Positions 159 through 31,860 of a stretch of DNA of 64,000 bases are shown in pieces (position 1 is the stretch's first letter; each line of letters starts with the position of its first letter). The DNA comes from a virus (taxonomy: Duplodnaviria; Caudoviricetes), in the IMG/VR virus record IMGVR_UViG_3300020045_005903, positions 7,644 to 71,643 of that record. The stretch is one strand, 5' to 3'. The translations under genes and the position numbers were made by a program. The notes below the pieces were generated by a model. The model saw only the letters and a list, made by a program, of their open reading frames with translations, was not told the DNA's origin and did no database searches.

Positions 159-884
159 ATGAAAAAAATTATCTATACAATCGTCGGGGTTATTCTCGTA
201 ATCCTTGGGTATTGGTTTATTAAAAAAGGTGAGACTACTCCCTTGCCACCCAAAAATCAAACAACAGAACTATCCATTGTCAATAGCACTAAAGACAGTG
301 TATTAGTATTCCTTACCCTGTCAGGCTATTCAGATAGTCTAGCGCCTTATTACATTCAAGACGTTAACGGAGTGTTTGGGATTACGGACAGTGGCCTTGT
401 TGGTAGTTTTTATGTTAAGGGATTTGATACACTATCTTACACGCCCGACTTAAGACTTTCCGGTAATCTTTGCTTTGGCACCCAACCGCTAAATTGTCCC
501 GATAGCTTGTGGAAGACAGGAACTAGCTTTTTTGAGTTTAACCTTAATTGCCCACAGGAGTCTCTTGATATAAGTTGTGTGGGAGGGGTGAGTAGCTTAA
601 TGGAAGTGAAATTGATCGGCGGTCCTAATTGGGTGGCGGCGCAATATCCTGATGTTAGAAATATTCACAATGACTCTATGTATAAGAATAGTAATCTAGT
701 TGGAGTGTTTCCTTATGGATGCACTAACTGTACTAATACTGACGGGAAACAACCTTGTCAAACACCTTCAGAAACGCCTGACTCTACACACATCTGTAAC
801 CCTACAAGGGCTAAGGATGAGAACGGCGGCAAGGTAGTATTGATATTTAAAGGCTACACTAATACTGTTATATGTAATAAATAG
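159..884 (+). CDS. Membrane-anchored/secreted Cys-rich protein, thaumatin-like (tentative)
   Basis: N-terminal hydrophobic segment; motifs LSIVNS, TSFFEFNLN and SLDISCVGG resemble thaumatin FTIVNN, TLAEFTL and YDVSLVDG; many Cys. Confidence 0.45.
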   Translation: MKKIIYTIVGVILVILGYWFIKKGETTPLPPKNQTTELSIVNSTKDSVLVFLTLSGYSDSLAPYYIQDVNGVFGITDSGLVGSFYVKGFDTLSYTPDLRLSGNLCFGTQPLNCPDSLWKTGTSFFEFNLNCPQESLDISCVGGVSSLMEVKLIGGPNWVAAQYPDVRNIHNDSMYKNSNLVGVFPYGCTNCTNTDGKQPCQTPSETPDSTHICNPTRAKDENGGKVVLIFKGYTNTVICNK

Positions 885-900
885 TTATATTTGTAAAGGA
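881..900 (+). repeat. 20-bp direct repeat copy 1 (ATAGTTATATTTGTAAAGGA), contains a Bacteroidota -7 promoter box
   Basis: Identical to 1288-1307; contains TATATTTG (TAnnTTTG). Confidence 0.85.
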
Positions 901-937
901 TTGAGCAATTAAGCCATCCGATAAAAAACATATAACA

Positions 938-1288
938 ATGAAAAGCAGATTAACTTTCGACCTAGACAGTCAAAACAAAGCAGTAATTCTCGCCAGAGTA
1001 GAATTGACAGAAGATGTTAGGGATAAAATAGCCAAACAGTTTCAAGAAAATTTCAGAACTAATGGTTCATTAGCCACGATAAGTTATTTTCCATCAGCAA
1101 CAGATAATTTAGAATTTCAAATAACACCTTATTCAGCAGACTTTAAAGACTGCCTAGAGTTAGCTAGTAATTTAAGCTACGAGCAAATGAATCAAATGAC
1201 AGAGGCCTTAAGATGGGAAAGGTTCAATAGAGATAAAGGAAATTTTACTTTAGGCTCAAAAATTAATCCACCAAAAAGTTATAAATAA
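938..1288 (+). CDS. Hypothetical protein
   Basis: 116-aa ORF with A-rich leader, flanked by 20-bp direct repeats. Confidence 0.75.
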   Translation: MKSRLTFDLDSQNKAVILARVELTEDVRDKIAKQFQENFRTNGSLATISYFPSATDNLEFQITPYSADFKDCLELASNLSYEQMNQMTEALRWERFNRDKGNFTLGSKINPPKSYK

Positions 1289-1307
1289 TAGTTATATTTG
1301 TAAAGGA
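1288..1307 (+). repeat. 20-bp direct repeat copy 2
   Basis: Identical to 881-900. Confidence 0.85.
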
Positions 1308-1322
1308 AGCCACATCACAACA

Positions 1323-1353
1323 AGCCCCTTACCCTAAAAAGTGAGGGGTTTTT
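1323..1353 (+). terminator. Rho-independent terminator
   Basis: AGCCCCTTAC/GTGAGGGGTT stem followed by T run. Confidence 0.65.
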
Positions 1354-1369
1354 GCTTGTTAATAATTTA

Positions 1370-1423
1370 TTTTCATTATTTTGCAACCTTTCTGTTTTAG
1401 TGGAGGTATAAGTAGTATATTTG
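1370..1423 (+). promoter_or_regulatory. Putative phage promoter (TTTCATTATTTTGCAACCTTT ... TATATTTG) upstream of cassette array 1
   Basis: TTGCAACCTTT at 1381-1391 recurs in several intergenic regions; TATATTTG at 1416-1423. Confidence 0.6.
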
Positions 1424-1469
1424 TAGCCCAACCAAAATGAAAAAACTAATCCTTTGCCTATTTAATTTC

Positions 1470-1599
1470 CCATAACGTACCGCAGGTTTATTTAGTGCGG
1501 GATTTAACAGATAAATTAACTTAAAAGCAGAAAATATGAAATTACTAAAATGGCTATTTGGGAGCAGGAAACCCGCATTGAATAAACCTGTTGTTAGCG
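1470..1599. other. attC-like site S1
   Basis: CCATAAC ... arms 1483-1501/1572-1590 (19 bp, 2 G-T) ... GTTAGCG; ATG of next gene lies in the loop. Confidence 0.8.
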
Positions 1600-1799
1600 G
1601 TAGTCTTTCTTTCAAGGAGCAAATGAAACAAGATATTATACCGAGAGTTTGGCAAATGGCTGAAAAAGAAAAAGAGCATTTGAATTGGTTGATAGATAAT
1701 AACGCACCTAAAGATATGGTTGAAACAAGTCAGCGTTATCTCAGCCATTATAGACAAAGACATAAAGAATATATTGAGTATTCGGATGGTCTGTCATAA
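1536..1799 (+). CDS. Cassette-borne hypothetical protein
   Basis: 87 aa; N-terminus (KPALNKPVVSGS) is encoded by the right arm of S1. Confidence 0.75.
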   Translation: MKLLKWLFGSRKPALNKPVVSGSLSFKEQMKQDIIPRVWQMAEKEKEHLNWLIDNNAPKDMVETSQRYLSHYRQRHKEYIEYSDGLS

Positions 1800-1805
1800 G
1801 ATTAC

Positions 1806-1899
1806 CGCTAACGTAAAAGCATTTATGTCAGGCGGGCATAGATGCAACTTTAAATAATAATGCAAGTGTCCGCCCGCTTGCATAAATGCAGTGTTAGCT
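1806..1899. other. attC-like site S2
   Basis: CGCTAAC-GTAAAA-GCATTTATG(T)CAGGCGGG ... CCCGCTTG-CATAAATGC-AGT-GTTAGCT. Confidence 0.85.
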
Positions 1900-1909
1900 G
1901 CCGTAATTT

Positions 1910-2233
1910 ATGATAAAAGTTTATATAGCAAGTCCATACACATTAGGTGATGTGGCAGTAAATGTCAAACTACAACTTGACACAGTAGATGAATTGATGA
2001 ACAAAGGGTTTGCACCTTTTGCACCATTATATTCTCACTTTCAGCACATAGCACACCCAAGACCTTATCAAGATTGGGTTAAGATAGATTTGGAGTGGGT
2101 AAAGGTTTGTGATTGCTTATTAAGGCTTGATGGCGAAAGCAAAGGTGCTGATGGTGAGGTCAGCTATGCAAAAGAATTAGGTCTGCCAGTATTTTATTCG
2201 ATAGACGATATGTGTCTGTATTATGGCAACTAA
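1910..2233 (+). CDS. Cassette-borne DUF1937/DUF4406-like (nucleoside deoxyribosyltransferase-like fold) protein
   Basis: KVYIASPY ... CDCLLRLDGESKGADGEVSYAKELGLPVF pattern; stop TAA lies inside the TAAC of S3. Confidence 0.7.
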   Translation: MIKVYIASPYTLGDVAVNVKLQLDTVDELMNKGFAPFAPLYSHFQHIAHPRPYQDWVKIDLEWVKVCDCLLRLDGESKGADGEVSYAKELGLPVFYSIDDMCLYYGN

Positions 2234-2320
2234 CGGTATCGGGCTTGGCGAAGGTGGGCTTGTAGGATGCTCAATTTTAGCAGGATGTTTCTGCCCACTT
2301 TTGCCAAACCCGTGTTATAA
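2228..2320. other. attC-like site S3
   Basis: AACTAAC-GGTAT-CGGGCTTGGCGAAGGTGGGC ... GCCCACTTTTGCCAAACCCG-T-GTTATAA. Confidence 0.85.
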
Positions 2321-2389
2321 GCTGGCTGCGGTTATTTACCGAAAAACTCAAATCGAAGCACTAAACAAAAGAATTAAAAAAAAGAAGGG

Positions 2390-3169
2390 ATGGAAATAAA
2401 TAAAATATATAACGAGAATTGCCTTGATACGATGGCTAAAATGCCTGATAAGTTTGTGGACTTGGTAGTTACTTCACCGCCTTACAATATGCGAACAAGA
2501 ATAAGGAACGGACAATACACCACAAGAGAGAAAAGCGAACATTTTAGCAAGAAGTATAAGCATTTTGACGATGCCTTACCGATAAATGATTTTTACGAAT
2601 TTCATAGCAGCGTATTGACCGAACTATTAAGAGTATCGAAAATTGTTTGCTATAACTTTCAGATAGTAACTGGAAGCAAAGAAGCGTTTTTTAAAATCAT
2701 TGGCGACTTTAATAAGGACATTAAGGATATTATCATTTGGGATAAAGGAAGCGGACAGCCTGCAATGCACGGAATGGTTTTAAATAGCTGCTATGAAATG
2801 GTATTGATATTAGAAGATGACAAAAGAGCAGGAAGGGCAATACAGAACGCTAAATTCAAAAGAGGCGAAATGAATAACATTTTGAGAATTGGCAGAGGCA
2901 AAAAAGTATCTGATGTTCACGGTGCAATTTTCCCTGAACAACTACCATTTGATTTGATAAACGCTTTTTCAGAAAAAGAAACATTGATTTACGACCCTTT
3001 TATGGGAAGCGGAACGACTGGATTAGTAGCAAGTAAATTAGGCAGAAAATATATTGGAAGTGAAATAACAGAAGAATATTGTAAAATAGCTGAAAATCGT
3101 ATTAAAGAGTGCGGTGGGCTTTTTTTTAATTCTTTTGAAACGGAATTGTCAAACGAAGCAGGAACGTAG
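2390..3169 (+). CDS. Cassette-borne DNA methyltransferase (N4-C/N6-A, beta class)
   Basis: Motif IV TSPPYN before motif I DPFMGSGTT; CLDTM/DLVVTS N-terminus; IGSEI. Confidence 0.9.
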   Translation: MEINKIYNENCLDTMAKMPDKFVDLVVTSPPYNMRTRIRNGQYTTREKSEHFSKKYKHFDDALPINDFYEFHSSVLTELLRVSKIVCYNFQIVTGSKEAFFKIIGDFNKDIKDIIIWDKGSGQPAMHGMVLNSCYEMVLILEDDKRAGRAIQNAKFKRGEMNNILRIGRGKKVSDVHGAIFPEQLPFDLINAFSEKETLIYDPFMGSGTTGLVASKLGRKYIGSEITEEYCKIAENRIKECGGLFFNSFETELSNEAGT

Positions 3170-3177
3170 CAGCTTGC

Positions 3178-3195
3178 TTATAACTATTATATGTA
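3178..3195. other. attI-like terminal site of array 1
   Basis: TTATAAC followed by TATTATATGTA with no hairpin; 3181-3195 is identical to 12600-12614. Confidence 0.7.
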
Positions 3196-3277
3196 CGCAG
3201 GTCAAGCCAACTAACTAAATATCAATAAAATAAACTGTTAAAAACGTTAAAAATTACAAAGCTACAAAAACAATATT

Positions 3278-3679
3278 GTGAAGCTCGACATCTATTCCCA
3301 AAGGCTAATAACCCAACTAGACTGGTTATATAAAGTATCAGAAGTGTTTATCGTGAATGGTAAATACGAAATGGATATTTGTGACGCAGATGTAAACAAG
3401 CCTTATTTATATGACGATATTTATGACCAATTAATTAAAGAAAATTTTAAGATAGAGTTTGCGCCGGAAGATAAAAATAAAATGTGGCAAATGGCTCAGA
3501 AATGCTTTATTCGTAATGAAAAACGTAACCCTAAAGCCACAGATGAAGTATTGCTGCACAGATATTATAAGAGCTACCTAGCTAAGAAATATGTGCTATC
3601 AAGATTACCTGAGAGAATGAGAATACACGACGAGGAAACGGGGGAAGAAATACGAAGAATAGAATTAATAATTAAATGA
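3278..3679 (+). CDS. Hypothetical protein
   Basis: 133-aa ORF, overlaps next start. Confidence 0.65.
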   Translation: MKLDIYSQRLITQLDWLYKVSEVFIVNGKYEMDICDADVNKPYLYDDIYDQLIKENFKIEFAPEDKNKMWQMAQKCFIRNEKRNPKATDEVLLHRYYKSYLAKKYVLSRLPERMRIHDEETGEEIRRIELIIK

Positions 3680-3873
3680 AAAAACTACACGTAAAAATAG
3701 GGCTGTCTAAAAAAGCAGAAAGGGAATTTGAAAGACTAGAGAAGCTAAAAGACATTCAATCAAAATGTCTCCACGCGGCAGAAAATGGTCAAATATCTTT
3801 ATCCGACACAATAAGGATTATGATGGCAGATAAAAAATCAGAGATTAAGAAAATCCTTAAAAAATATAAATAA
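3676..3873 (+). CDS. Hypothetical protein
   Basis: 65-aa ORF in tightly packed operon. Confidence 0.65.
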   Translation: MKKLHVKIGLSKKAEREFERLEKLKDIQSKCLHAAENGQISLSDTIRIMMADKKSEIKKILKKYK

Positions 3874-3875
3874 CT

Positions 3876-4355
3876 ATGGAAAAATACTACACCCCATTAA
3901 TAGAAGAGTTTCATTACGGGTTTCAGTTTGAATACAAACACCCTCTACAAGTTGCAGGAGAAGAAGCGGAGTGGGCTCTGTATGATTGGAGAAGTTTAAT
4001 GGCTACTATTACACTACACCCTAAAGGCATATCTATTGGAGGATTTTCAATAAAAGATGAATGTTTAAGGGTAAAATATTTGGATGTGGGAGACTGTGAA
4101 GAGTTGGGATGGAAACACATAGGCTCACAATGGTATGACTTAATAGAAGTGCCTGGTAAATTAGGGTATTGGCTTTATGTGAGGTTTAGAAAATGTGGTG
4201 ACGAATCTTTTATCAAAGCATACCGTTACGACCCAAAGGAAAAGAACAAAGATACGGAAGGGGAAAATTACCAAGAAGAAGATTTTTTGTTCAGTGGTAA
4301 CATAAAGAACAAAAGCGAGTTTAAAAAATTAATGATTCAATTAGGGATTAAGTGA
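3876..4355 (+). CDS. Hypothetical phage protein
   Basis: 159 aa; KYYTPLIEEFHYGFQFEY N-terminus resembles a pattern recalled from Bacteroidota phages. Confidence 0.7.
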   Translation: MEKYYTPLIEEFHYGFQFEYKHPLQVAGEEAEWALYDWRSLMATITLHPKGISIGGFSIKDECLRVKYLDVGDCEELGWKHIGSQWYDLIEVPGKLGYWLYVRFRKCGDESFIKAYRYDPKEKNKDTEGENYQEEDFLFSGNIKNKSEFKKLMIQLGIK

Positions 4356-5989
4356 AAAGAGAAATAAGATATTATCAACAAGACGCTTATAATGCCGTTA
4401 TGTCCGCCAAAGCAAAGGGTCATAAACGAGTATTGATTACTATGCCTGGGGGTACAGGCAAAACATTCACTTGCGCTAACATAATCAAAGACTTTGGTCG
4501 CAAATGTTGGATTACACACGAAGAGTCCCTTGCCGAACAAAGCGCTATTGCCATCCTTACAGAAATGGAAATTTTACCCGAAGCAGATATTATTGAAGCG
4601 GTAAATGCTCACGGAGGATTAGTAAATTTACTTTCTAAAAAACCATTTTACTTAGGCGAAAACGCTAGAATAGTTTGGGAAAACGTCGGGATGGTTAAGG
4701 CAGACATATTTGATATTGACAAGCCATTAGTAATATGCTCAGCGCAAACTTTGTGGCGGAGACTCGATAAAATACCTAAAGATTGGTTTAGTGTTATTGT
4801 TTGCGACGAGGGGGATTTATTCGGATCGGTTAGCTTTAAGGCTCCTTTAGATTACCTAACTCCTGAATTAATTATCGGAGCTACCGCAACTGCATTTCGC
4901 GGAGACGGGATGTTAATGGAGGATATTTTTGAAGCATTAGTTTATGACTACCCTATTGAACAAGCCATAAAAGACAAATACCTTACCGAAATTAACGCCA
5001 TTGTTGTTCGCACATCCGCAAACCTAGACGAAGTTCATTCTTTTGGAGGAGACTTTAATCAAAAAGAATTGGTTGAAAAGGTGAATACTTTAGAGCGAAA
5101 TAATTTAATCGTTAATAAGTATATTGAGTATTGCAGCGGACAACAGTTTATTTGTTTTGGCGCAGACGTACAGCACGTAATAGACCTCCACGAAGCCTTT
5201 AAAGAGAAAGGAATAGTTACAACCTATGTGGTTAGCGATAAAGATAAAATGGAAATTGGAACTGACCGCAAAACTATTGTGCGAGATTTTAGGGAGGGTA
5301 AAATAATGGGACTTGTAAATTATAATATTTTTAGTGCCGGATTTGATGTTCGAGATTGCGGATGTGTAATTTTAGGCTGCCCGACAAAATCTAAAAGAAA
5401 GTTTTTACAACAGCTATATAGAGTTACAAGATTAAAAACCGAAAAGTTTGTAAATAAGTTCGGGCAAATAGGAACGGTTCTCGATATTGTTGATGGCACT
5501 TCTAAGCATAAATTAATTAACACTCACGAACTAGACAAAGGTAAGCCAATAGAAGATAGGGTGTTTGTTTCTAATGCAAACAAGCAATTATTAATTGAAG
5601 CTAGGGTTGCTAAAGACAAGGTTTTTGTTACTAATTACAGAAAAGAAGACAAGGTAGTTGATTTATTTAAATTGCCGCTAATTAAGATTAGCGACTCAAT
5701 GAGAATGGGAGAAATGGCTACCGAAGCTCAGCTAAACGCAATAGCTAAATGGGATTATGATATTGTAAATACCGTTTATACAAAGCGAATGATTAGTGAG
5801 ATATTCGGCAAACAAGAAGCTACTGCAAAACACATTTCGTTTTTGAAATGGAAGGGATATGATACGAGTGGATTTGTAAGTGTGGCAGAAGCGGCGGCAG
5901 CAAGTAAAGAGATTAAGCTAAGAGAAGAGAAGTTAGAGAGAGATAAGAACCAAAACAACATAAAAAATAATTTACCATTTAAATTTTAA
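4352..5989 (+). CDS. Superfamily 2 (DEAD/DEAH-like, ResIII/UvsW-type) helicase
   Basis: Q-motif RYYQQDA, Walker A MPGGTGKT, DEGD, GATATAFR, FSAGFD, QQLYRVTR. Confidence 0.88.
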   Translation: MKREIRYYQQDAYNAVMSAKAKGHKRVLITMPGGTGKTFTCANIIKDFGRKCWITHEESLAEQSAIAILTEMEILPEADIIEAVNAHGGLVNLLSKKPFYLGENARIVWENVGMVKADIFDIDKPLVICSAQTLWRRLDKIPKDWFSVIVCDEGDLFGSVSFKAPLDYLTPELIIGATATAFRGDGMLMEDIFEALVYDYPIEQAIKDKYLTEINAIVVRTSANLDEVHSFGGDFNQKELVEKVNTLERNNLIVNKYIEYCSGQQFICFGADVQHVIDLHEAFKEKGIVTTYVVSDKDKMEIGTDRKTIVRDFREGKIMGLVNYNIFSAGFDVRDCGCVILGCPTKSKRKFLQQLYRVTRLKTEKFVNKFGQIGTVLDIVDGTSKHKLINTHELDKGKPIEDRVFVSNANKQLLIEARVAKDKVFVTNYRKEDKVVDLFKLPLIKISDSMRMGEMATEAQLNAIAKWDYDIVNTVYTKRMISEIFGKQEATAKHISFLKWKGYDTSGFVSVAEAAAASKEIKLREEKLERDKNQNNIKNNLPFKF

Positions 5990-5993
5990 GATT

Positions 5994-6152
5994 ATGAGAA
6001 AAATTTTAACACACTCATTGTGGGCAGCAATATACGTTCTATTTATAATAGATTATTTTACAACCGCTGACAGAAACAATACCTGTTTATTTTTTATGGT
6101 AATAATTCTGCTTAACATTTGGATTGAACTTATTAATAATAAAAAACCATGA
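5994..6152 (+). CDS. Small two-TM membrane protein (not in ORF track)
   Basis: 52 aa MRKILTHSLWAAIYVLFII...; fills the gap and its stop overlaps the next ATG. Confidence 0.6.
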   Translation: MRKILTHSLWAAIYVLFIIDYFTTADRNNTCLFFMVIILLNIWIELINNKKP

Positions 6153-6436
6153 AAATAGAAAAAGAAATCAAGTACACCCTATCCATTAATGAACCCGATG
6201 GACACGGAATAGACTACAATAAAAACTTGGAGTCTGACATCGCCGGATTATTAATATCCCTTACTGTCCTACAGACTAATTTAGAGTCTTTAAAAGCCAC
6301 TAAAAAGCTAGTGAAGGGTACGGATAAGAAATTTGTATCTCAGCAAATAAGCTATATTTCAGCTTCTTTAAAGGGGGTTAAAATACTTGTTGTGCAACTA
6401 TGTGATAATTATGAAACTTTAATTGAGAGGAAATGA
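6149..6436 (+). CDS. Hypothetical protein
   Basis: 95-aa ORF in operon. Confidence 0.7.
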   Translation: MKIEKEIKYTLSINEPDGHGIDYNKNLESDIAGLLISLTVLQTNLESLKATKKLVKGTDKKFVSQQISYISASLKGVKILVVQLCDNYETLIERK

Positions 6437-6648
6437 CACCAAAAGAAAAAGCTAAAGAATTGGTTGGATTGTTTGAATTTTCAAACGAAAGCCCTATTCA
6501 TAGAAACGATATTGACTGTGCATTAGTTTGCGTTGATATAATAGACAAAATATTCGTTAAAACTACCCCGCAAGACAATCCTTATGAGTATCTTTTTCAG
6601 CTTGAATATTGGCAAGAAGTTAAAAAAGAAATTACAAATCTGCAATAA
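6433..6648 (+). CDS. Conserved phage hypothetical protein (MTPKEKAKEL...YWQEVK type)
   Basis: Characteristic N- and C-terminal motifs. Confidence 0.7.
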   Translation: MTPKEKAKELVGLFEFSNESPIHRNDIDCALVCVDIIDKIFVKTTPQDNPYEYLFQLEYWQEVKKEITNLQ

Positions 6649-6683
6649 AACAAAATAATATTAAAATCTTACAAACTTGAAAT
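6631..6683. promoter_or_regulatory. Tandem TTACAAA-type operator pair
   Basis: ATTACAAATCTGCAAT and TTACAAACTTGAAAT, 37 bp apart; same arrangement at 17891-17940. Confidence 0.55.
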
Positions 6684-7088
6684 ATGGACAAAAAAGAAAT
6701 GGCTGAAAAATGTCACATTAACATCAGTAAATTTAAACACGCTAATTTATTGACTTGCGAGTGGTGTACTTATAAGCATAAATTAACTACAATATATTAT
6801 ACAGACAACGTAAACCCCGCCGCTTATTGCAGAGAATTGTGGTGGAGTTTTGTATTAAGGTGGCTAAGGCTAAAAAAATATATTACATTTGGAAAGCCAA
6901 CAAATATAGCTGTTATCGAACCTTGTCCGCCACCAATTAAGCAAACAGGGTTTGGAATTATTAAGGACGAACCAATTTCTAATTTTAGAATAAGGTTTGC
7001 AGGAGAAAAAATAAAAGCAATCGTTACCTCAGAAGTAAAAAAAGATTGCGATGGAAACATTTATTATGATATAAAGCCAACTGAATGA
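6684..7088 (+). CDS. Hypothetical protein
   Basis: 134-aa ORF. Confidence 0.65.
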   Translation: MDKKEMAEKCHINISKFKHANLLTCEWCTYKHKLTTIYYTDNVNPAAYCRELWWSFVLRWLRLKKYITFGKPTNIAVIEPCPPPIKQTGFGIIKDEPISNFRIRFAGEKIKAIVTSEVKKDCDGNIYYDIKPTE

Positions 7089-7453
7089 AAAGAATAAATC
7101 TTAACGAAGAGTTTATCCTAGAGGGTAGTGGAGTGTATGAGTTTATCCAAAAGGAGAAAGGAATATCCCTAAAGTTTATTAGGGAGACATACAAGAACCA
7201 CACTCCTAAACCAAAAAAGGAAATAGCAATACCCTTAGAGGCGGACGTTAAGAAATACGCTTCAGATAATGGTTACAATCCTAATTTTATGTGGGAGAAA
7301 ATGAAAGGATATATCGACGCAGGAATGACAGACTCTAGGGGAACCCAAATTAAAAACTGGAAGCTGAAACTTAATCAAGTGTGGTTTGTACCCGAACATA
7401 AAATAGTAAAAGACGAACAAAAGATAAAATTCTTTCAGAATGGAGATAGGTAA
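7085..7453 (+). CDS. Putative replication initiator/helicase-loader-like protein
   Basis: C-terminal W..G..IKNWK motif typical of phage replication proteins; two genes upstream of DnaB. Confidence 0.45.
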   Translation: MKRINLNEEFILEGSGVYEFIQKEKGISLKFIRETYKNHTPKPKKEIAIPLEADVKKYASDNGYNPNFMWEKMKGYIDAGMTDSRGTQIKNWKLKLNQVWFVPEHKIVKDEQKIKFFQNGDR

Positions 7454-7637
7454 TTGGACAAAGCTAGGCTATAAAGCGGAACCAACAGAAAAAGATTTAC
7501 CATTTATTACTTGGGGAGTATTTACAGGCTTTGAAATTTGGGATGATACAGATTGGTTTTTTGAATTAACAACAAAGGAACAATACGAAAGAATGTTTTG
7601 GGGGAAATTAAATTATCCTATTAAGCTTAAAAAATGA
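7440..7637 (+). CDS. Hypothetical protein
   Basis: 65-aa ORF overlapping both neighbours. Confidence 0.6.
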   Translation: MEIGNWTKLGYKAEPTEKDLPFITWGVFTGFEIWDDTDWFFELTTKEQYERMFWGKLNYPIKLKK

Positions 7638-8998
7638 CAGACAACTTACAGCTAATTGAAATAGAATTAAAGCTTCTTGGCACATATATGGACACATCCG
7701 ACCTATTCGAGAAGTGTAACCATCTTGTCTCAGAGGGCATATTCTTACGCCCCGTCACCAAAGCTTCCTATAAAATTATTAAAGCCCTCCATCAACAGGG
7801 AACTAAGCCAGACCAATCCTTAGTGTTTGCACAACTTAAAATTCTAGGATTTTCAAAACAAGACTGCTCCACTATTTTAGGAGTGAGTTTTGATTATTCC
7901 TACGGCCGCCAACCCGAACATTATGTAGATATTCTATTTAAAAATAGCGTGGCGAATTTCCTACTTCCGCTACTTCAAGATACCCACTCAAAACTCTCAT
8001 CTGAAACAGGAGACAGCCTAGAGCTAATGGACTCTCTCAGCGAAGCTATTAATAAAGTTAACTTAGTAGTGAACAATGTAAGTAAAGAAAAACCAACCAC
8101 CGAAATATTTGATGAAGCAATACAAAGAATACTCGACCTTAAAAATAATGTAATAGAAAATGTAGGATATTCTTTTGGACTCAAAGACCTAGACTCTAAA
8201 ACAGGAGGATTAGCAAAAGGAATTACGGTTGTTGGAGCTGTACCTGGAGCCGGAAAATCCTCACTCGTAATTAATATCTTGACAACAAACGCAATAAACA
8301 ATTCTGTGCCAACCCTATTCTTTTCTATTGAAATGCCTGCAATAGACATTATGACCAATATCATTGCTAATAAGTCTAACATTAATTCTAGGGCATTAAG
8401 ACAAGGAGATGTGAATGACGGAGAGATACTGTCTATAAAGTCGATCAAAGAAAGCTTAGGAAGTCATTTTGAGATTGATGATAACGGAGGTGTAACTTGG
8501 CAGTATATTGAAGCTAAGATTAAGTCCTTCCGGAAAAAGAATAAAGTGCCAATGTCCCAAACTATTTTATGCCCTATTGATTACTTACAATTAATGAGTA
8601 ATTCGGCGGACGAAATTAAAGGGACTAGTGATGAGCAAAGGATAAGTAAAATTTGTAAAGAATTAACTAGAATTACTAAGTCAGAGAATGTGGCCATTGT
8701 ATTACTGTCGCAGTTAAGTAGACCACCTAAAGGAGAAGTTCCTAGACCTAAGATGAGTGATTTAAAGGGTAGTGGAGCTATTGAGGCGTGTGCTATTCTA
8801 GTGCTGCTACTATTCCGCCCCGAATACTCAGGTATTCTTACAGACGACAATGGAAGGGATTTAAGGGGATTGTGCGAGATTAATCCTGCTAAGGGAAGGT
8901 ATATTAAACCCGAACCTGTGTATGTAAAATTTGTGGGAAAATATAGTAAATTTGAGGATTGTGATGATAATTTATCCTCTTCTGATTCAGCGCTTTAA
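7634..8998 (+). CDS. dnaB: DnaB-like replicative helicase
   Basis: GAVPGAGKSS, FSIEM, IDYLQLM, LSQLSR, SDLKGSGAIE motifs. Confidence 0.95.
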   Translation: MTDNLQLIEIELKLLGTYMDTSDLFEKCNHLVSEGIFLRPVTKASYKIIKALHQQGTKPDQSLVFAQLKILGFSKQDCSTILGVSFDYSYGRQPEHYVDILFKNSVANFLLPLLQDTHSKLSSETGDSLELMDSLSEAINKVNLVVNNVSKEKPTTEIFDEAIQRILDLKNNVIENVGYSFGLKDLDSKTGGLAKGITVVGAVPGAGKSSLVINILTTNAINNSVPTLFFSIEMPAIDIMTNIIANKSNINSRALRQGDVNDGEILSIKSIKESLGSHFEIDDNGGVTWQYIEAKIKSFRKKNKVPMSQTILCPIDYLQLMSNSADEIKGTSDEQRISKICKELTRITKSENVAIVLLSQLSRPPKGEVPRPKMSDLKGSGAIEACAILVLLLFRPEYSGILTDDNGRDLRGLCEINPAKGRYIKPEPVYVKFVGKYSKFEDCDDNLSSSDSAL

Positions 8999-9054
8999 TA
9001 AATTACTTGCAATTATTTGAAACCTTTTATTTATCTTTACGTTAAAGTAGGTAT

Positions 9055-9243
9055 ATGGAAAATAAAATAGATAAAAATTCTGCCTCAGTAAATATTTATG
9101 CTTGGACTTATACTAACGCTCCTTTATCGGAATTAAAAGAATGGGTTGATTCACAAATTTCTGATGGCAAAACCCACGTAAGATTAGAATTAGAATGGGG
9201 GTATTATGATGACATCGAAAGCTTACACATTACAGCCAAATAA
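9055..9243 (+). CDS. Hypothetical protein
   Basis: 62-aa ORF after promoter-like TTGAAACCTTT..TATCTTTAC. Confidence 0.6.
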   Translation: MENKIDKNSASVNIYAWTYTNAPLSELKEWVDSQISDGKTHVRLELEWGYYDDIESLHITAK

Positions 9244-9247
9244 AACT

Positions 9248-9451
9248 ATGGAAAAAACAATCAGTAACTCATCCCAAGTCACTCATATTAAATGGGCAGA
9301 CAAAATCCTTACAGTAACATTTGTAGGAGATAAGAAATACGAATACCTAGAAGTTCCCCAAAGTATTTACGATGCCGCGATTGCCGCCGAGAGCATAGGA
9401 AAGTTTTTGAATAGTGAAGTGAAGAATAAATTTAAATTTAATAAAGTATGA
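9248..9451 (+). CDS. KTSC-domain protein
   Basis: SSQVTHI..LTVTF..KYEYLEVPQSIY..AESIGKFLNSEVK; start placed at 9248 rather than 9206. Confidence 0.85.
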   Translation: MEKTISNSSQVTHIKWADKILTVTFVGDKKYEYLEVPQSIYDAAIAAESIGKFLNSEVKNKFKFNKV

Positions 9452-10455
9452 GCAAGAAACCAACCACAGAAGTAACGGTATCTAATCCTAAACTTCAAAA
9501 AGACCTAGAGTTAGTCCAATCCCTACAAACCCAAGTGGACACCGTAGGAACTCAATTACTGCAAGTAAAAGTGATGGATGATTCCACACTATCAATCTGC
9601 CAACAAAACCTCTCTAAAGTCAACTCTATAGTTAAAACTATCGAAGAGAAACGAGTGGAACTTAAAGCTCCCTACCTTGAAGCCGGTAAACAAATCGACT
9701 CCCTTTGCAAGTCTATTACCGACCTAGCAGTGAAAAGTATTACCCACGCTAAGTCTGAAATAGCTAATTGGGAAAATGCTAGGTTAGCACTCGCCGCAGC
9801 AGCACAAGCTGAGGTTGACGCAAAAGCTAAAGCTGAAGCTGATAAGATCGCCGCAAATGAAACTCGTAAAAAAGGAATATTAGACTTTATTTCAACTACA
9901 CTTAAACCTTACCTTCAATCTACTTATGACTCTTTAAAATCAGCAGAGGACTGTGATGTATTCTTAGCTAAGATTAAAAAAGACTTTCCTGGAGAAGCCA
10001 AGTTTCAAGAATATTTACAGGACGCTAATCAAATTAGAGATAATTACATAGATTTAATAAATGGTAAAAAAGCTCAATTTAGTGCGGCGGCGAATATCTC
10101 TGAATCTGAATTAGCTTTAATGAAAGAGAAAGAAAGATTAACCCTAATGCAACAAGAACTTGACAATGAAAAATTAAGAGTTAAGCAGCTAGAGGAGTAT
10201 GCTAAATTAGAGAGAGAAAGAAAAGCTGCTGAGGAATTAGCAGAGCTAGAAAAAGCTAAATTACAAGCGGCTGCAGGCCTAGAGAAAACTAAAGGAGTTA
10301 GATACATTGATAAGTTTGAGGTGATAGATTTTGATAAAGTGCCAAGAGAATTTTTATGTGTAGATGAGGCTAAAGTTAAAGCTTATCAAAAGGAGAATAA
10401 AATAGGAGAGATTACCGGAATTAGATTTTTTAAACAATCAAGCATAGTAGCCTAA
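9448..10455 (+). CDS. Coiled-coil protein, DUF1351/Gp157/Gam-like
   Basis: Long coiled coil; KRVELKAPYLEAGKQID; C-terminal DFDKVPREFLCVDEAKVK; stop TAA forms the TAAC of S4. Confidence 0.55.
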   Translation: MSKKPTTEVTVSNPKLQKDLELVQSLQTQVDTVGTQLLQVKVMDDSTLSICQQNLSKVNSIVKTIEEKRVELKAPYLEAGKQIDSLCKSITDLAVKSITHAKSEIANWENARLALAAAAQAEVDAKAKAEADKIAANETRKKGILDFISTTLKPYLQSTYDSLKSAEDCDVFLAKIKKDFPGEAKFQEYLQDANQIRDNYIDLINGKKAQFSAAANISESELALMKEKERLTLMQQELDNEKLRVKQLEEYAKLERERKAAEELAELEKAKLQAAAGLEKTKGVRYIDKFEVIDFDKVPREFLCVDEAKVKAYQKENKIGEITGIRFFKQSSIVA

Positions 10456-10569
10456 CGGTTTGCACATTGGCGTTGTTGCCACAGAATTTAATTAAAAACA
10501 ATAAACTTTAATATTATGACAAAAGTATCAAACGAAGAGCAAAGCAATAACGCCAATGTGCTGTTAGGT
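10450..10569. other. attC-like site S4
   Basis: GCCTAAC (RYYYAAC) ... arms 10462-10479/10544-10561 (17/18 WC, 1 G-T) ... GTTAGGT (GTTRRRY). Confidence 0.9.
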
Positions 10570-10824
10570 GAAGTTACATTGTGTGTAGGCTTCAATGCTC
10601 ACCGATTAAAAGAGAATGACGATTATCACAAAAAAGAATGTGATTTTGTGAAAGCCATTAACCAAGAGATGAAATATAATAAAAGCACTTTAGCTCAAAT
10701 GGTGAACCATCCCGACCACAAAGAATGGCTTGAAGAAAATGAGCAAAAGATTGTGTTAAGCGTGATACAATGGTTAGGAACGCCAGTAGGACAGGGATTT
10801 TTGGAGAAGGTGGCAAAAATGTAA
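10516..10824 (+). CDS. Cassette-borne hypothetical protein
   Basis: ATG in the loop of S4; SNNANVLLGEV is encoded by the right arm and core. Confidence 0.75.
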   Translation: MTKVSNEEQSNNANVLLGEVTLCVGFNAHRLKENDDYHKKECDFVKAINQEMKYNKSTLAQMVNHPDHKEWLEENEQKIVLSVIQWLGTPVGQGFLEKVAKM

Positions 10825-10828
10825 TTTC

Positions 10829-11257
10829 ACCTAACGTTTTCGGGCTAAGAGAAGTAAAACCCTTTAGAGCGGTGGGGGATTTCATCGCTCAAATTAAATA
10901 TAAATAACTCAAATGGAAAAAACATTGAGCAACACAACAGCAAGCCAAGCCAAAGACAACGTGAAAGACATCGTGTTTTGGGGCAATGGCGACACCTTCA
11001 AATTAATTAGCAAAGCATCATCCAAAAATGAAGGTTGGATGAAATCTTCAAAGGCAATGGAAATTGAAGGTGTAGGATGCGTAGTGCAAGTTACCACCCA
11101 ACAAGGTGAGAATATTGCAGAGGCGGTAACTTTTGTACCTAATGTAAAAATTGAGGAAACAAAAGGTGATGATGGAGTGGTAACTTCTCGTAAGTTGATT
11201 GCCATTTAGTACGGTGCGTGGGCAAAGGGTTTTATTTCTTCTTAGCCCGTGTTATAA
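10829..11257. other. Giant attC-like site S5 with a gene in its loop
   Basis: ACCTAAC ... arms 10841-10865/11224-11249 ... GTTATAA. Confidence 0.8.
10913..11209 (+). CDS. Conserved phage hypothetical protein inside the S5 loop
   Basis: 98 aa; GWMKSSKAMEI..GCVVQVTTQQG..AEAVTFVP; AT-rich leader. Confidence 0.8.
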   Translation: MEKTLSNTTASQAKDNVKDIVFWGNGDTFKLISKASSKNEGWMKSSKAMEIEGVGCVVQVTTQQGENIAEAVTFVPNVKIEETKGDDGVVTSRKLIAI

Positions 11258-11296
11258 GTCAGGTGGGCATTTTCGCCCACTTGCGTTAAACAATAT

Positions 11297-11402
11297 GTTA
11301 GTGGTAGTGCTTTAGAAGTATGCCCTGGCTGTAAAACGAAAAATAGACATTGGTACGCAAAAGATTATTGGTGTTGTGCATTTTGTTAGCATTACCGCTA
11401 AC
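11297..11402 (+). pseudogene. Mini-cassette remnant with a start-less Cys-rich reading frame
   Basis: Ends GTTAGTGGTAGTGCT/AGCATTACCGCTAAC are complementary; frame VSGSALEVCPGCKTKNRHWYAKDYWCCAFC* has no in-frame ATG. Confidence 0.5.
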
Positions 11403-11474
11403 GTTTTGCAGCTAATGGCTGGTGGCTTTTATAGGCTGTTAGTTTGTGCCACTTGCCATTAGGTGCTGTTATGT
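11396..11474. other. attC-like site S6
   Basis: CGCTAAC-GTTTT-GCAGCTAATGGCTGGTGGC ... GCCACTTGCCATTAGGTGC-T-GTTATGT. Confidence 0.85.
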
Positions 11475-11535
11475 TGGTGCGCTGGCAAGTGTGTGGGGCA
11501 GTTTTATTTTATTAATTTTTAAAAAAGCGAAGGAA

Positions 11536-11808
11536 ATGAAGTTAACATTATTACAAAGATTAATTGAGTTTGTGATTCAATTTAAATACAAACATAATTT
11601 ACAGCCGACCTACAACTATAAGGTTGGTGACAAGGTGAAATATAACTGGAAAGGAAAAGTTATGCTTAGACCAGTTATAAACGATAGAGCAGAGGATGTT
11701 TTGGTAATAAATGAAGTAAAGCATAAAAGGAATGAGTTTATCAACTATCAAAATACAAGAACAAAAAAACGAGGATGGTTAGATGCTTACTGGTTAAAAC
11801 GTGCGTAG
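11536..11808 (+). CDS. Cassette-borne hypothetical protein
   Basis: Start moved from 11446 (inside S6) to MKLTLLQ after AAGGAA; YKVGDKVKY motif. Confidence 0.7.
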   Translation: MKLTLLQRLIEFVIQFKYKHNLQPTYNYKVGDKVKYNWKGKVMLRPVINDRAEDVLVINEVKHKRNEFINYQNTRTKKRGWLDAYWLKRA

Positions 11809-11837
11809 GCTTTTAAAAATTAATAAAATAAAATTGA

Positions 11838-11926
11838 ACATAACGGTTACAGCTTGCCGATAGTAAGGCAAATACCCGAAAAAAATAAAAAATCATTTGC
11901 CTTATTTTGGCAAGGTGGTGTTAAAT
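11838..11926. other. attC-like site S7
   Basis: ACATAAC-GGTTA-CAGCTTGCCGATAGTAAGGCAAAT ... ATTTGCCTTATTTTGGCAAGGTG-GT-GTTAAAT. Confidence 0.85.
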
Positions 11927-11968
11927 GCAGTGCGGACTTAATTAATAACTAAAAAATAAATAAATAAA

Positions 11969-12193
11969 ATGGCTGACTTAAAAACATTAGTAAAAGACAA
12001 CAAGGTGAAATTCGATTTTTACCGAGCAGGAGTAATGTATTACACCGTTACATCCGAAGAAAAAACATATCGCTTTCCTGTGCCACTTGAGGATATAGGA
12101 GATGCGACATTACTTGCAGAAGATAAAGCCATTTTATTTATGCGTTACATACGAAAGGCAATTAATAGCAATGAGCTTCAAACAGTGCAGTAG
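11969..12193 (+). CDS. Cassette-borne conserved phage hypothetical protein
   Basis: 74 aa; FYRAGVMYY..FPVPLEDIGDATLLAEDKAILFMRYIRKA. Confidence 0.8.
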   Translation: MADLKTLVKDNKVKFDFYRAGVMYYTVTSEEKTYRFPVPLEDIGDATLLAEDKAILFMRYIRKAINSNELQTVQ

Positions 12194-12199
12194 CATTGC

Positions 12200-12328
12200 A
12201 TTTAACGTTCGATGCTTGTGGCAGGTGGCATTAAAAGCACAAATGTAAATTAACCGATAAAGTAAAATTGAAAAACAGAATTTAATATTAACCGCAGACC
12301 GCCACTTGCCTACAAGCATTTGTTAGTG
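12200..12328. other. attC-like site S8
   Basis: ATTTAAC-GTTC-GATGCTTGTGGCAGGTGGC ... GCCACTTGCC(T)ACAAGCATT-T-GTTAGTG. Confidence 0.85.
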
Positions 12329-12350
12329 GTCTGTTTAAAAACAAAAAGCG

Positions 12351-12578
12351 ATGGCAGACTTAGAAAAAATTAGACAAGCACAAATGATTGCAGGTGAAAA
12401 CGCTGTGATTGCAGGATTAAAAGCAAAAGGATTGCTACCTAAAGATGAACAGAGCGAGGACTCGTTGCTATTTTTCAACTTATTTAGAGAAGTAAGAAAT
12501 GAAATAGCAACGGAGGAGGGCTATGTGCTGCAAGATGCAATACGAATAACATTTGATAGATGGATGAAGCGTGGGTAG
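12351..12578 (+). CDS. Cassette-borne hypothetical protein
   Basis: 75-aa ORF between S8 and the attI-like site. Confidence 0.75.
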   Translation: MADLEKIRQAQMIAGENAVIAGLKAKGLLPKDEQSEDSLLFFNLFREVRNEIATEEGYVLQDAIRITFDRWMKRG

Positions 12579-12596
12579 GCTTTGTTTTTAAATTGC

Positions 12597-12614
12597 CACT
12601 AACTATTATATGTA
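12597..12614. other. attI-like terminal site of array 2
   Basis: CACTAAC-TATTATATGTA; 39 bp upstream of the recombinase ATG; 15-mer shared with 3181-3195. Confidence 0.75.
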
Positions 12615-12653: not shown

Positions 12654-13487
12654 ATGGAAATTCCAAGATGGCACGAAAGATATTGTATGGACTCAGCTTT
12701 AAAATATCCAAGTAAAGCAACCCAAGAAAACTACCAAAGTACAGTTTTAGGTTTTTTGCATTACTTTAAAAATGATGTTGACCCCTCTCACATAAAAACG
12801 GATGACATTAAAAAGTGGCTCTTAACTTTTGAAACGATTAATACTCGTAATCATAAATTATGTGGTATAAAATCCTTTTATCAAATTACCGTTGGGATGC
12901 CTTTAAAATTGGATAAAATACCATTCAGCAAAAAGGACAACAAGCTACCGGAAATTTTAGAGAGAGAAGAGATACAGTCATTATTAAAAGTTTGCACAAA
13001 CACAAAACACAAATTAATAATTACAATCCTTTATGCTTGCGGACTAAGGATAAGTGAAATTTTAAATCTTAAATTAATTCACATTAACAAAGATACCATT
13101 GATATTAAATGTGCTAAAGGCAGAAAAGATAGAATAGTTCAATTGCCAACGAGGGTTAAGCAAAGAATTGACGAATATACTTTGGAGTATAAGCCTATTG
13201 AGTATTTGTTTAATGGTCAGTTCCCCGAAAAAGAATTAAGATATAATGAAAGGTCTGTAAACGAATTTTTAAAAAAATATGCTACGTTAGCAGGAATAAA
13301 AACCCACGTTCATGCGCATAAAATTCGTCATTGTTATGCCACCCATACTTTAGAAGATGGAACAACCTTGCCATTTTTACAAGAAATGCTTGGACACAAT
13401 AGTCCTAAAACTACATCAATATATATTCACACATCGAGGCGATCAATTGCAAGACAAACGTCTCCCGTTGATGGAATGGATTTTTAA
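12654..13487 (+). CDS. Tyrosine recombinase (XerC/D / integron-integrase-like)
   Basis: Catalytic set GLRISE, KGRKDR, HKIRH, LGH, TSIY; 277 aa. Confidence 0.95.
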   Translation: MEIPRWHERYCMDSALKYPSKATQENYQSTVLGFLHYFKNDVDPSHIKTDDIKKWLLTFETINTRNHKLCGIKSFYQITVGMPLKLDKIPFSKKDNKLPEILEREEIQSLLKVCTNTKHKLIITILYACGLRISEILNLKLIHINKDTIDIKCAKGRKDRIVQLPTRVKQRIDEYTLEYKPIEYLFNGQFPEKELRYNERSVNEFLKKYATLAGIKTHVHAHKIRHCYATHTLEDGTTLPFLQEMLGHNSPKTTSIYIHTSRRSIARQTSPVDGMDF

Positions 13488-16599: not shown

Positions 16600-17255
16600 T
16601 GGCAAAGCAAAATAACGTCACTGAGCAATGGTTTAAAGACAAGGGTTATTTTTTGAACACTGACGGAAGTTGGTCGCCGCCTCAAATGAAATCTAAGTAC
16701 ATTAAAGTTCAAGCAGCCAAGAATGTATTAGAAGAGATTGAACTTGTTATAAAAGAGAAAGTAAACAGCAGCCCCGACTTTAAAATAATTCCTTCTACTG
16801 AATGGTTTATAACGAATTATAATGTGCCGAGCAAGAAAAATTCTAGGCAAAATTTTAAAAACGGAATAAGCATACCAAGCGAAAAGCACGCCGAATATGT
16901 TAAAATGACCGCTATGCAATATGACGCTTATGGTAAAGAATTTAGAAATGCGGTTGAATACTTTGACTTAAAGTATCCTTTACGTATTGAGTTTACATTT
17001 ATAAGAAGCTCTAAAAAATCATTTGATTACGGGAACGCCCTACAAACCTGTGAGGATATAATGAAGGACGAGTATAAAAAAATTCCAACGGATAAAATTG
17101 GTAAAAACGGTAAAAGAGTTAAAAAATTTGTATTAGTAAAACAAAATTGGTTTCCCGATGATTCTGCAGACTACTTATTACCATCTTTTAAACCTTATGA
17201 ATATGATAAAGAAAATCCAGGAGTACGCATAAAGCTTTTAATTACAAAACGATAA
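16599..17255 (+). CDS. RusA-like Holliday junction resolvase
   Basis: VPSKKNS, FDYGNALQTCED, PDDS, DKENPGVRI motifs. Confidence 0.65.
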   Translation: MAKQNNVTEQWFKDKGYFLNTDGSWSPPQMKSKYIKVQAAKNVLEEIELVIKEKVNSSPDFKIIPSTEWFITNYNVPSKKNSRQNFKNGISIPSEKHAEYVKMTAMQYDAYGKEFRNAVEYFDLKYPLRIEFTFIRSSKKSFDYGNALQTCEDIMKDEYKKIPTDKIGKNGKRVKKFVLVKQNWFPDDSADYLLPSFKPYEYDKENPGVRIKLLITKR

Positions 17256-17683
17256 TGGGAGAATTTAAACCTTATCCTAAACAAGGACCAAAACCAAAAA
17301 AGCAACCTAAGCCACTCAAGAGGTCGCCGATAAAAAAGAAATTTAAGGCTACAGGAGAGCGAGAAACATTTGAGGTAGTGCTAGACGAGCTTAGTGATTT
17401 CGAGCCTACAACGTGCTTTGTTTGCGGAATTAACGTGGCAGTTGTAACACATTGTAACATGGCTCACGTACTTTCAAAAAAGCAATACTCTTTGTTTAGG
17501 AATAATCCTAACAATATAAAAATACTTTGTCACCGAATAGTAGCAGACAAAGACGGAAATCAGGGATGTCATTATTTGTACGATATGACCCCACATAGTA
17601 ATTTAAAAGGAGAGGGGTGGGAGAAGCTATTTGAATTGCGCGATAAACTAAAAGAAGAATATAAAAGAATAGAGAAATTATGA
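17255..17683 (+). CDS. HNH/NinG-like nuclease
   Basis: CFVCG..AHVLSK..NPNNIKILCH. Confidence 0.65.
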   Translation: MGEFKPYPKQGPKPKKQPKPLKRSPIKKKFKATGERETFEVVLDELSDFEPTTCFVCGINVAVVTHCNMAHVLSKKQYSLFRNNPNNIKILCHRIVADKDGNQGCHYLYDMTPHSNLKGEGWEKLFELRDKLKEEYKRIEKL

Positions 17684-31837: not shown

Positions 31838-31860
31838 AATGATAAATGTATGTGTATCGA

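Follow-up and report, generated by a model that had tools for sequence, protein, structure and literature searches.

Two hairpin-headed gene arrays, one beside an Xer-like recombinase gene, as probable integron-like cassette platforms in a flavobacterial phage genome

A 64,000-nt stretch of virus record IMGVR_UViG_3300020045_005903 (hereafter the window; bases 7644–71643 of the 71,643-bp record, which is 94% complete) contains two arrays of small genes and long hairpins, array 1 at 1473–3195 and array 2 at 10453–12614, the latter followed by the gene of a tyrosine recombinase. From the comparisons of sequence and predicted folding given below, we consider it probable that both arrays serve as gene-cassette platforms for an integron-like system of site-specific recombination in phages of Flavobacteriia, in which each mobile unit consists of a hairpin plus the gene downstream of it, and the acceptor is located at the 3′ end of the array. 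Nucleotide matches in the phage collection were to Flavobacterium phages only, and the closest named relatives of the recombinase in that collection are from Polaribacter and Cellulophaga phages, so we treat the genome as that of a phage of Flavobacteriia. Features are given in window coordinates and lie on the + strand unless stated otherwise.

The hairpins were retrieved by a scan of all 71,643 bp for TAAC...GTTA pairs with complementary inner arms and a folding energy of −28 kcal/mol or lower. The scan returned nine matches representing eight distinct sites, all of them within 1473–2317 and 10453–12325 of the window, compared with zero or one match in each of 12 shuffled genomes. All eight sites fold at −30 kcal/mol or below and have TAAC and GTTA cores, and their stem sequences are unrelated. 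The site consensus consists of a core pair (5′-RYYYAAC and GTTRRRY-3′), a 4–5-nt bulge on the 5′ side, a stem of 15–25 bp with variable sequence and a loop of 10 to about 370 nt. As in integron attC sites, these are imperfect palindromes with RYYYAAC and GTTRRRY cores in which structure is kept rather than sequence; for example, the hairpin at 1809–1896 and its copy in contig L024 differ by compensatory stem changes. The short spacing before GTT that had been pointed out in a preliminary description of this DNA held across 51 sites from the window and related loci, where the mode was 5 nt after AAC and 1 nt before GTT (ranges usually 3–6 and 0–3 nt, respectively). This 5/1 register gives a 4-nt bulge on the 5′ side, and the sites that have it depart from the roughly symmetric unpaired spacer between R and L boxes of a canonical attC. 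Nor are they dif-type sites, which are duplexes of 28–30 bp with two 11-bp arms and a 6–8-bp centre, since those described here are hairpins of 70–420 nt. Rfam holds no family for the hairpin sites and gave only chance-level matches to miRNA and lncRNA models. When sites were selected symmetrically with respect to strand, 39 of 44 folded better on the gene-sense strand (mean 5.4 kcal/mol, p = 1.4 × 10−7), because the stem mismatches are G·T wobbles on that strand, while the other five folded slightly better on the antisense strand.

A second signature concerns the sequences next to the hairpins. The 10 nt after GTT and the 10 nt before the next AAC, which stand on opposite sides of a gene, are complementary at 7.33 of 10 positions, compared with only 3.44 of 10 for the two flanks of the same hairpin, and none of 20,000 permutations of the partners reached the observed value. 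As in integrons, such flanks pair only in a circular cassette, and their complementarity across the gene argues that the units close into circles, although by itself it does not tell which of the two neighbouring hairpins, upstream or downstream, moves together with the gene.

Each array closes at its 3′ end with the same half-site, TAAC followed by the constant sequence TATTATATGTA. The full motif, TAACTATTATATGTA, has exactly two copies in the 64 kb, at 3181–3195 and 12600–12614, against a chance expectation of 0.28 even with one mismatch permitted, and the attI-like site that the preliminary description had placed at the 3′ end of each array is found at these two positions only. The acceptor site, TAAC-N15-TAAC, is a direct repeat and not an inverted one. 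In array 2 it lies 40 nt upstream of the recombinase ATG, whereas array 1 has no recombinase gene within 9 kb of it. The site is kept in relatives whose recombinase is 42–86% identical to that of the window, about 40–130 nt upstream of the recombinase gene. A scan of viral contigs with the acceptor 15-mer, an AT-rich pattern, gave matches of which 80 were screened, and about 70 of these were chance occurrences with neither hairpins nor a recombinase nearby; in seven contigs a recombinase gene starts 57–128 nt downstream.

These relatives reveal where the variation begins. Four of the contigs (L036, L074, L076 and L077) are 99.9–100% identical over the 900 nt downstream of TAAC/TATTATATGTA (a slash marks the junction), and upstream of it their identity drops to 22–24%, which is the random level, with a shared run to the left of 4–5 nt. 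Contig L028, which is syntenic with the window (helicase, DnaB and a 340-aa gene) and encodes a recombinase of 86% identity, has other cassettes in the interval from the shared core gene to an acceptor site that is near-identical, and L029 (recombinase 71% identical) has different cassettes upstream of a similar one; the conserved acceptor of these two contigs reads TAAC-T[AT][TC]TATAT[GA]TA. The closest view of individual junctions is provided by Polaribacter phages Freya_1 to Freya_10 (genomes of 44.0–48.9 kb), whose recombinase is 29% identical to that of the window. We aligned seven size variants (Freya_1, 2, 5, 6, 8, 9 and 10), and these are about 100% identical save for blocks of 0.8–4.9 kb immediately upstream of the integrase gene. 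All junctions, six types in total, read xxxAAC/ACCCCTATAAC or xxxAAC/next hairpin, so that in the different variants xxxAAC is joined to the same constant ACCCCTATAAC...ATG of the integrase gene. The difference between Freya_9 and Freya_10 is one unit of 307 bp, in which the left arm comes straight after AAC, an ATG lies in the loop, the open reading frame (ORF) follows with the right arm about 40 codons into it, and the end reads TTGCTAAC/; in Freya_8 an internal block is absent, with the join TTTACAAC/TTACATG. Cellulophaga phage Ingeline has a matching arrangement, TTGCTAAC/ACCCACATAAC. Taken together, the Freya series, the four contigs and L028 and L029 place the variation at the recombinase-proximal 3′ end, breaking at the AAC core, and by this comparison the constant site beside the integrase gene appears to be the point at which cassettes are gained or lost, as expected of an attI.

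The window cassettes that recur in other contigs identify the travelling hairpin. Window 10444–10844, which spans the unit 10453–10835, matches positions 7930–8328 of L024, an otherwise unrelated contig with a family-A DNA polymerase gene, at 92% identity; the homology runs from the TAAC of the upstream hairpin to 1–9 nt past the next TAAC, and the hairpins downstream of the two copies are unrelated. The unit 1473–1812 has matches with equal boundaries in L026 (91% identity) and L020 (81%), and the hairpins that follow it in the window, L026 and L020 are all three unrelated; in L020 it is a lone insert in the direction opposite to its neighbours. The shared units thus extend from AAC to the next AAC, which means that the mobile unit has the hairpin first and the gene second, and together with the Freya junctions they uphold the earlier proposal that a hairpin moves with the following gene. 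Across seven contexts of the gene of ORF 1536–1799 (hereafter ORF 1536), the downstream hairpin is shared in none and the upstream hairpin in two. Homologues of ORF 1536 and of ORF 10516–10824 (ORF 10516) were abundant in a metagenome protein search, and tblastn of both against the phage collection gave no match. Units in which the gene lies within the loop are also found elsewhere: the arms of the hairpin at 10832–11254 recur in L028 with a shorter loop, and a homologue of its ORF (10913–11209) is the last unit of L074, where the next AAC follows almost directly on GTT.

The 277-aa protein encoded at 12654–13487 is the only tyrosine recombinase of the genome and has the catalytic R-K-H-R-H-Y residues. 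It scores below the cutoffs of every curated family: its best NCBIfam match is to the XerA-like NF040815 (archaeal XerA-type; 179 bits, cutoff 220), and TIGR02249 gives 141 bits against a cutoff of 265. Among solved structures, XerA (4a8e, 97 bits) ranks first, and IntI4 (2a3v) reaches 92 bits. The HMMER alignment to IntI4 falls into two stretches, residues 17–172 and 163–272 of the query on 16–177 and 201–317 of the chain, and since this split skips the insertion, the recombinase lacks the integron-specific insertion. The additional domain that defines the IntI clade, with the I2 helix near patch III, is accordingly not seen, and the protein has 277 aa compared with 320 for IntI4. The family comprises at least 678 proteins at E ≤ 1 × 10−20, nearly all of 273–291 aa among the matches listed and many of them on phage-sized contigs. 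A peptide-word search with the recombinase, a method too strict for such a diverged family, retrieved none in viral contigs and only two archaeal Xer-like genes in genome contigs.

In the mechanism that we propose, the Xer-like recombinase would carry out strand exchange on a folded site, inside its 5′ AAC core, and the partner would be the constant acceptor TAAC/TATTATATGTA immediately upstream of the recombinase's own gene. The unit, from AAC to the next AAC, comprises the hairpin, the GTT flank, one or more genes and the complementary flank, and in the excised circle the two flanks would pair and rebuild a complete site. New units would enter at the 3′, recombinase-proximal end, with the oldest hairpin left next to a core phage gene at the 5′ end. 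When the arrays are viewed on the complementary strand, the positions of recombinase, acceptor and hairpins are those of a classical integron, with the recombinase transcribed away from the acceptor, the site at the distal end of the cassette and the folding strand as the 'bottom' strand, and the cargo alone is reversed.

Several observations weigh against this interpretation. In five of the contexts, homology to the ORF 1536 gene begins no earlier than the GTT core (1583–1592) and the upstream hairpins are others, homologues of ORF 1536 carry at least five different upstream hairpins, and the hairpin 1809–1896 recurs in L024 before an unrelated gene. The linkage between hairpin and gene is thus not absolute, and over longer times there must also be exchange on or close to the GTT side. 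For the Freya series, stepwise insertion and stepwise deletion against the acceptor site are both compatible readings. Array 1 and the arrays of phages mumin and P12002L (described below) have no adjoining recombinase and require the assumption that the enzyme acts in trans, and the recombinase could also serve lysogeny. Finally, stem covariation and wobble asymmetry point to a single-stranded DNA substrate, and a role at the RNA level predicts the same asymmetry.

The first three of these observations, and the five sites with slightly better antisense folding, would fit a model without fixed ownership, in which AAC and GTT are both crossover points (for example, if either strand can fold), hairpins, genes and flanks are three independent modules, and a hairpin with its downstream gene is merely the commoner combination. 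We regard this as unlikely, because all resolvable recent events break at the AAC side (the 91–92% identical units, the six Freya junction types and the four acceptor contigs), because the ORF 1536 contexts share upstream hairpins and no downstream one, and because arrays end in an AAC half-site and never open with a bare GTT half-site. In the cassette reading that we prefer, recent transfers are of AAC-to-AAC units, and hairpins and genes are reassorted on a longer time scale.

Less probable still, and in our judgement very unlikely, is that the hairpins act at the RNA level or in regulation (as processing sites, attenuators or weak terminators), that the genes are shuffled by ordinary homologous or illegitimate recombination, and that the recombinase is a lysogeny integrase with the constant site as its attP. 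Better folding of the sense strand is what a G·U-pairing RNA would show, many arrays have no recombinase, and those who described Freya and Ingeline took the integrase genes to be lysogeny genes (the Freya description takes the integrase as a lysogeny marker and leaves the cassettes unmentioned; PMC8776804). However, the stems differ almost wholly between sites and thus offer no homology, and the breakpoints still fall in a 4–5-nt core; complementarity of flanks across genes has no RNA-level rationale; and the constant site keeps its place upstream of recombinases of widely differing identity, with variation beginning exactly there. Canonical integron cassettes, with the gene followed by its own attC and the acceptor at the 5′ end, are scarcely credible and already contradicted by the junction data: the cores do read RYYYAAC...GTTRRRY in the direction of the gene, stops overlap TAAC as in many classical cassettes, and IntI1 recombined one P12002L site (Qi et al. 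2023, PMC9892861), but each array opens with a full hairpin and closes with the constant half-site (in array 2 next to the recombinase), shared units take the upstream hairpin and leave the downstream one, and genes that start in or lie within a loop would be cut in two.

Since in the proposed units the site precedes the gene, genes can start inside a loop (ORF 1536 and probably ORF 10516) or sit wholly within one (ORF 10913–11209). The preliminary description had seen that ORFs 1536 and 10516 begin in the loop of the upstream hairpin and read through the GTT core, and both are indeed visible in the sequence: the ATG of ORF 1536–1799 is in the loop of 1473–1596 and its frame passes through the right arm and GTT core (...RKPALNKPVVSGS...), and the ATG of ORF 10516–10824 is in the loop of 10453–10566, with a frame that crosses the right arm and GTT (...SNNANVLLGEV...). 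Its more general claim, that the hairpin supplies the start codon, applies to a minority of the genes. For ORF 1536 the loop start is well supported by comparison of eight contexts of the family with five hairpin types, in all of which the frame is open for 16–48 codons upstream of GTT and has an in-frame start 14–21 codons upstream of it, before the right arm (ATG in seven, GTG only in L019); between GTT and a conserved Met30, four codon variants are synonymous and two are non-synonymous. Met30 itself, which is preceded by an AAGGAG-like box, was considered as the start and rejected as unlikely, because in four of the eight contexts synonymous changes to AAAGAA or AAAGAG destroy the box, while the upstream frame is open in all eight. 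A loop start is also well supported for the gp006 methyltransferase of Flavobacterium phage mumin6-1, in which the GTT codon is residue 15, the Pfam domain begins at residue 37, and the loop ATG, with a stop three codons ahead of it, is the only in-frame start. For ORF 10516 the loop start is likely but less than certain, because most homologues start 3–8 residues before a conserved VGFN motif, where the window has no ATG and offers only TTG 10579, 13 nt after the GTT core. The other window cassettes start elsewhere: only two of about nine start in a loop, and the remaining ORFs begin 14–75 nt after GTT, apart from ORF 10913–11209 inside its loop. GTG 11446 was rejected as the start of the ORF at 11536–11808 in favour of the in-frame ATG 11536, and probably reflects only that the frame is open further upstream.

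The cargo genes all share the direction of the phage early genes and of the recombinase, and they are therefore probably expressed from upstream phage promoters rather than from a promoter at the acceptor site. Before array 1, a strong, intrinsic-type terminator-like stem-loop at 1322–1351 (11-bp stem with 5 G-C pairs, then the T tail TTGCTTGTT) ends the upstream unit, and a promoter-like element at 1365–1432, ATTTTGCAACCTTT ... GTAGTATATTTG, would read into the array. The 14-mer ATTTTGCAACCTTT has exact copies at 1378, 13782 and 32487 (the last on the minus strand), at three apparent operon starts, and probably belongs to a phage-specific promoter. The hairpins of the arrays have no T tails, and this, with the terminator and the promoter-like box, fits read-through from upstream phage promoters. 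In the window, the Bacteroidetes promoter pattern (TTTG N17–23 TANNTTTG) showed no enrichment, and sigma-70-type promoter-like matches were at chance level. A 20-nt direct repeat, AATAGTTATATTTGTAAAGGA, is located at 884–904 and 1288–1308, after the stops of ORFs 159–884 and 938–1288; it contains a TAnnTTTG motif that resembles the Bacteroidetes −7 promoter box, and similar motifs (GTATATTTG) precede gene starts in mumin, Freya and L022.

Array 1 consists of three units and the terminal half-site. The first hairpin, A1-1 (1473–1596, −33.7 kcal/mol), heads the cassette 1473–1812 and is laid out as TAAC, 5–6 nt, a 22-bp imperfect stem, a 64-nt loop, 1–2 nt and GTTA; it folds 9.8 kcal/mol better on the + strand than on the − strand. 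Its ORF at 1536–1799 encodes 87 aa with no assigned function, of which residues 1–20 come from the loop and right arm. Hairpin A1-2 (1809–1896, −36.0 kcal/mol) heads the cassette 1809–2234, with a 107-aa DUF7768/DUF4406 protein at 1910–2233, and A1-3 (2231–2317, −35.9 kcal/mol), whose right flank GTTATAAGCTGGCTGCGGTTA is common to phage mumin, heads the cassette of an N6/N4 DNA methyltransferase (2390–3169; PF01555, E = 1.6 × 10−33) that is likely anti-restriction cargo. The attI-like terminal half-site at 3181–3195 has a left flank, GCTTGCTTATAAC, complementary to GTTATAAGC at 2314. As had been described, the stops of ORFs 1910–2233 and 9448–10455 are the TAA of TAAC, at 2231–2234 and 10453–10456.

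Array 2 begins at the latter stop, that of a conserved 335-aa gene, with hairpin A2-1 (10453–10566, −33.0 kcal/mol), followed by the 102-aa ORF at 10516–10824, which has no assigned function. The gene-in-loop cassette comes next as hairpin A2-2 (10832–11254, −38.4 kcal/mol), its arms at 10841–10866 and 11225–11250 about 360 nt apart, with the 98-aa ORF 10913–11209 between them. After it, 11251–11299 holds about 40 nt from GTTATAAG to a degenerate GTTAAAC core, with a small hairpin, CAGGTGGGC-ATTTTC-GCCCACTTG, and then a stemless junction, AAC-AATAT-GTT; together these look like a collapsed or decayed site, and L028 has an intact equivalent (CTTGCTTATAAC). The decayed junction opens a mini-cassette of about 100 bp (11289–11402), the flanks of which, GTTAGTGGTAGTG and CATTACCGCTAAC, pair at 8 of 10 positions and which could encode at most a short Cys-rich peptide. 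Hairpin A2-4 (11399–11471, −31.4 kcal/mol) precedes the ORF at 11536–11808 (90 aa from ATG 11536), A2-5 (11841–11923, −30.9 kcal/mol) an ORF of 74 aa at 11969–12193, and A2-6 (12203–12325, −33.5 kcal/mol) an ORF of 75 aa at 12351–12578 that is nearest to the acceptor, the last two ORFs without assigned function. The attI-like acceptor half-site at 12600–12614 ends the array.

The system shares much with integrons, sedentary chromosomal ones included: folded imperfect palindromes with the same cores and with stems kept in structure only, flanks that pair only in the circle, small promoter-less cargo genes and a constant acceptor beside a tyrosine recombinase gene transcribed away from it, with variation at the acceptor-proximal end. 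It differs in that the recombinase is Xer-like, has 277 aa and is without the IntI insertion (I2 helix); in that the cargo is uniformly antisense to the classical orientation, the site preceding the gene; in the asymmetric internal loop (5 nt vs 1 nt, unlike the classical spacer); and in that the arrays allow no Pc-type promoter geometry and are carried by a virulent-type phage genome. In classical cassettes the ORF is followed by attC and the ORFs point away from attI, with expression via Pc, whereas here the genes point to the acceptor and recombinase; this inverted layout, already proposed in the preliminary description, recurs in Freya, the four contigs and the syntenic relatives. The system is therefore integron-like yet departs from integrons in two defining properties, the IntI insertion and cassette polarity.

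Three further systems offer partial parallels. In Polaribacter phage P12002L, Qi et al. 2023 (PMC9892861) described a cluster of attC sites lacking an integrase, or 'CALIN', that carries two methyltransferases; two attC sites were predicted, in 'divergent directions', and one of them was recombined by IntI1. The kind of site, the phage group and the methyltransferase cargo are the same as in the window, and array 1 likewise has no adjoining recombinase; however, that paper named no recombinase, acceptor or cassette polarity, whereas the window has a cognate recombinase and an acceptor. In the XerCD integration of CTX-phi and further IMEX elements, an Xer-family enzyme without the integron insertion acts on a single-strand hairpin, exchanging one strand pair, and the product is resolved by replication (PMC3442271), which is a precedent for the proposed chemistry; there, however, host XerCD and chromosomal dif integrate a whole phage genome, and no phage enzyme shuffles single-gene cassettes. 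The pdif modules of Acinetobacter plasmids are gene modules between short Xer-type sites that occur in many contexts (PMC7399989), but their sites are 28-bp duplexes with two arms and a 6-bp spacer, with no long variable hairpins, acceptor or ordered array. Beyond the P12002L 'CALIN' report, we found in the literature no integron-like Xer-dependent phage system.

Two arrays in named phages were observed alongside. On the minus strand of the P12002L record (L145), the region 29200–32930 contains three methyltransferase genes and several small ORFs, bracketed by at least six hairpin sites of one orientation and by a terminal half-site, GTGCCTAAC/AACGGATAAAAC, with flanks complementary across genes; there is no integrase or recombinase among the annotated products of the record. 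Phage mumin6-1 (L001) has, at 255–4045, an array of at least five sites between DNA methyltransferase genes. Its last cassette has the flanks GTTATAAGCTGGCTGCGGTTA ... GGAACGTAGCAGCTTGCTTATAAC, as in the methyltransferase cassette of the window, but encodes another methyltransferase, and the constant sequence after it, TACAATATTACATG, is not that of the window.

Going one step further, we lean towards the view that the arrays represent a second integron-type lineage parallel to IntI, mainly in phages of Bacteroidota, in which an Xer-like recombinase without the I2 helix would act on sense-strand hairpins, the site would serve the cargo gene as its 5′ leader and in some cases encode the N terminus of the product, and unrelated phages would share a pool of anti-defence cassettes. 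The use of folded single-stranded sites by integrons has been attributed to the I2 helix, which is exclusive to integron integrases (PMC4792948, PMC7790495); a widespread phage-borne system doing the job of an integron by means of a plain Xer-like enzyme would, if true, test this requirement. It would likewise explain how the accessory genes of flavobacterial phages come to form modular, cassette-like mosaics, and would delimit a pool of mobile anti-defence genes in phages. In practical terms, standard integron finders could mis-orient or miss arrays with the reversed layout, in keeping with the two 'divergent' sites published for P12002L against the six or more of one orientation counted there, and gene callers are likely to misplace the starts of genes that begin inside sites. 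The Freya isolates are a ready experimental system, comprising seven near-identical phages on one cultured Polaribacter host that differ in their cassette blocks alone.

With respect to cargo, an Acb2/Tad1-like gene (PF24729, the anti-CBASS/Thoeris sponge family) lies between two hairpins in L024 (9224–9925), and we count it as cassette cargo because the hairpin flanks GTTGTGCG and CGCACAAC are complementary; in L028 a gene of this type (17105–17350) lies outside the array. DNA methyltransferases together with the Acb2/Tad1-like sponges of the relatives suggest that the phages draw anti-defence genes from one pool. A jumbo-phage-like contig of 364 kb (L031, GCA_040384425.1) has, in a tightly packed operon, a homologue of ORF 10516 with 67% identity across the whole alignment, which suggests that this cargo gene may also exist outside cassettes. 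Elsewhere in the window, at 62699–62904, at least five direct or inverted copies of TATTACAAACTTGTAATA occur within 200 nt, an arrangement that resembles an origin or an array of iterons or operators.

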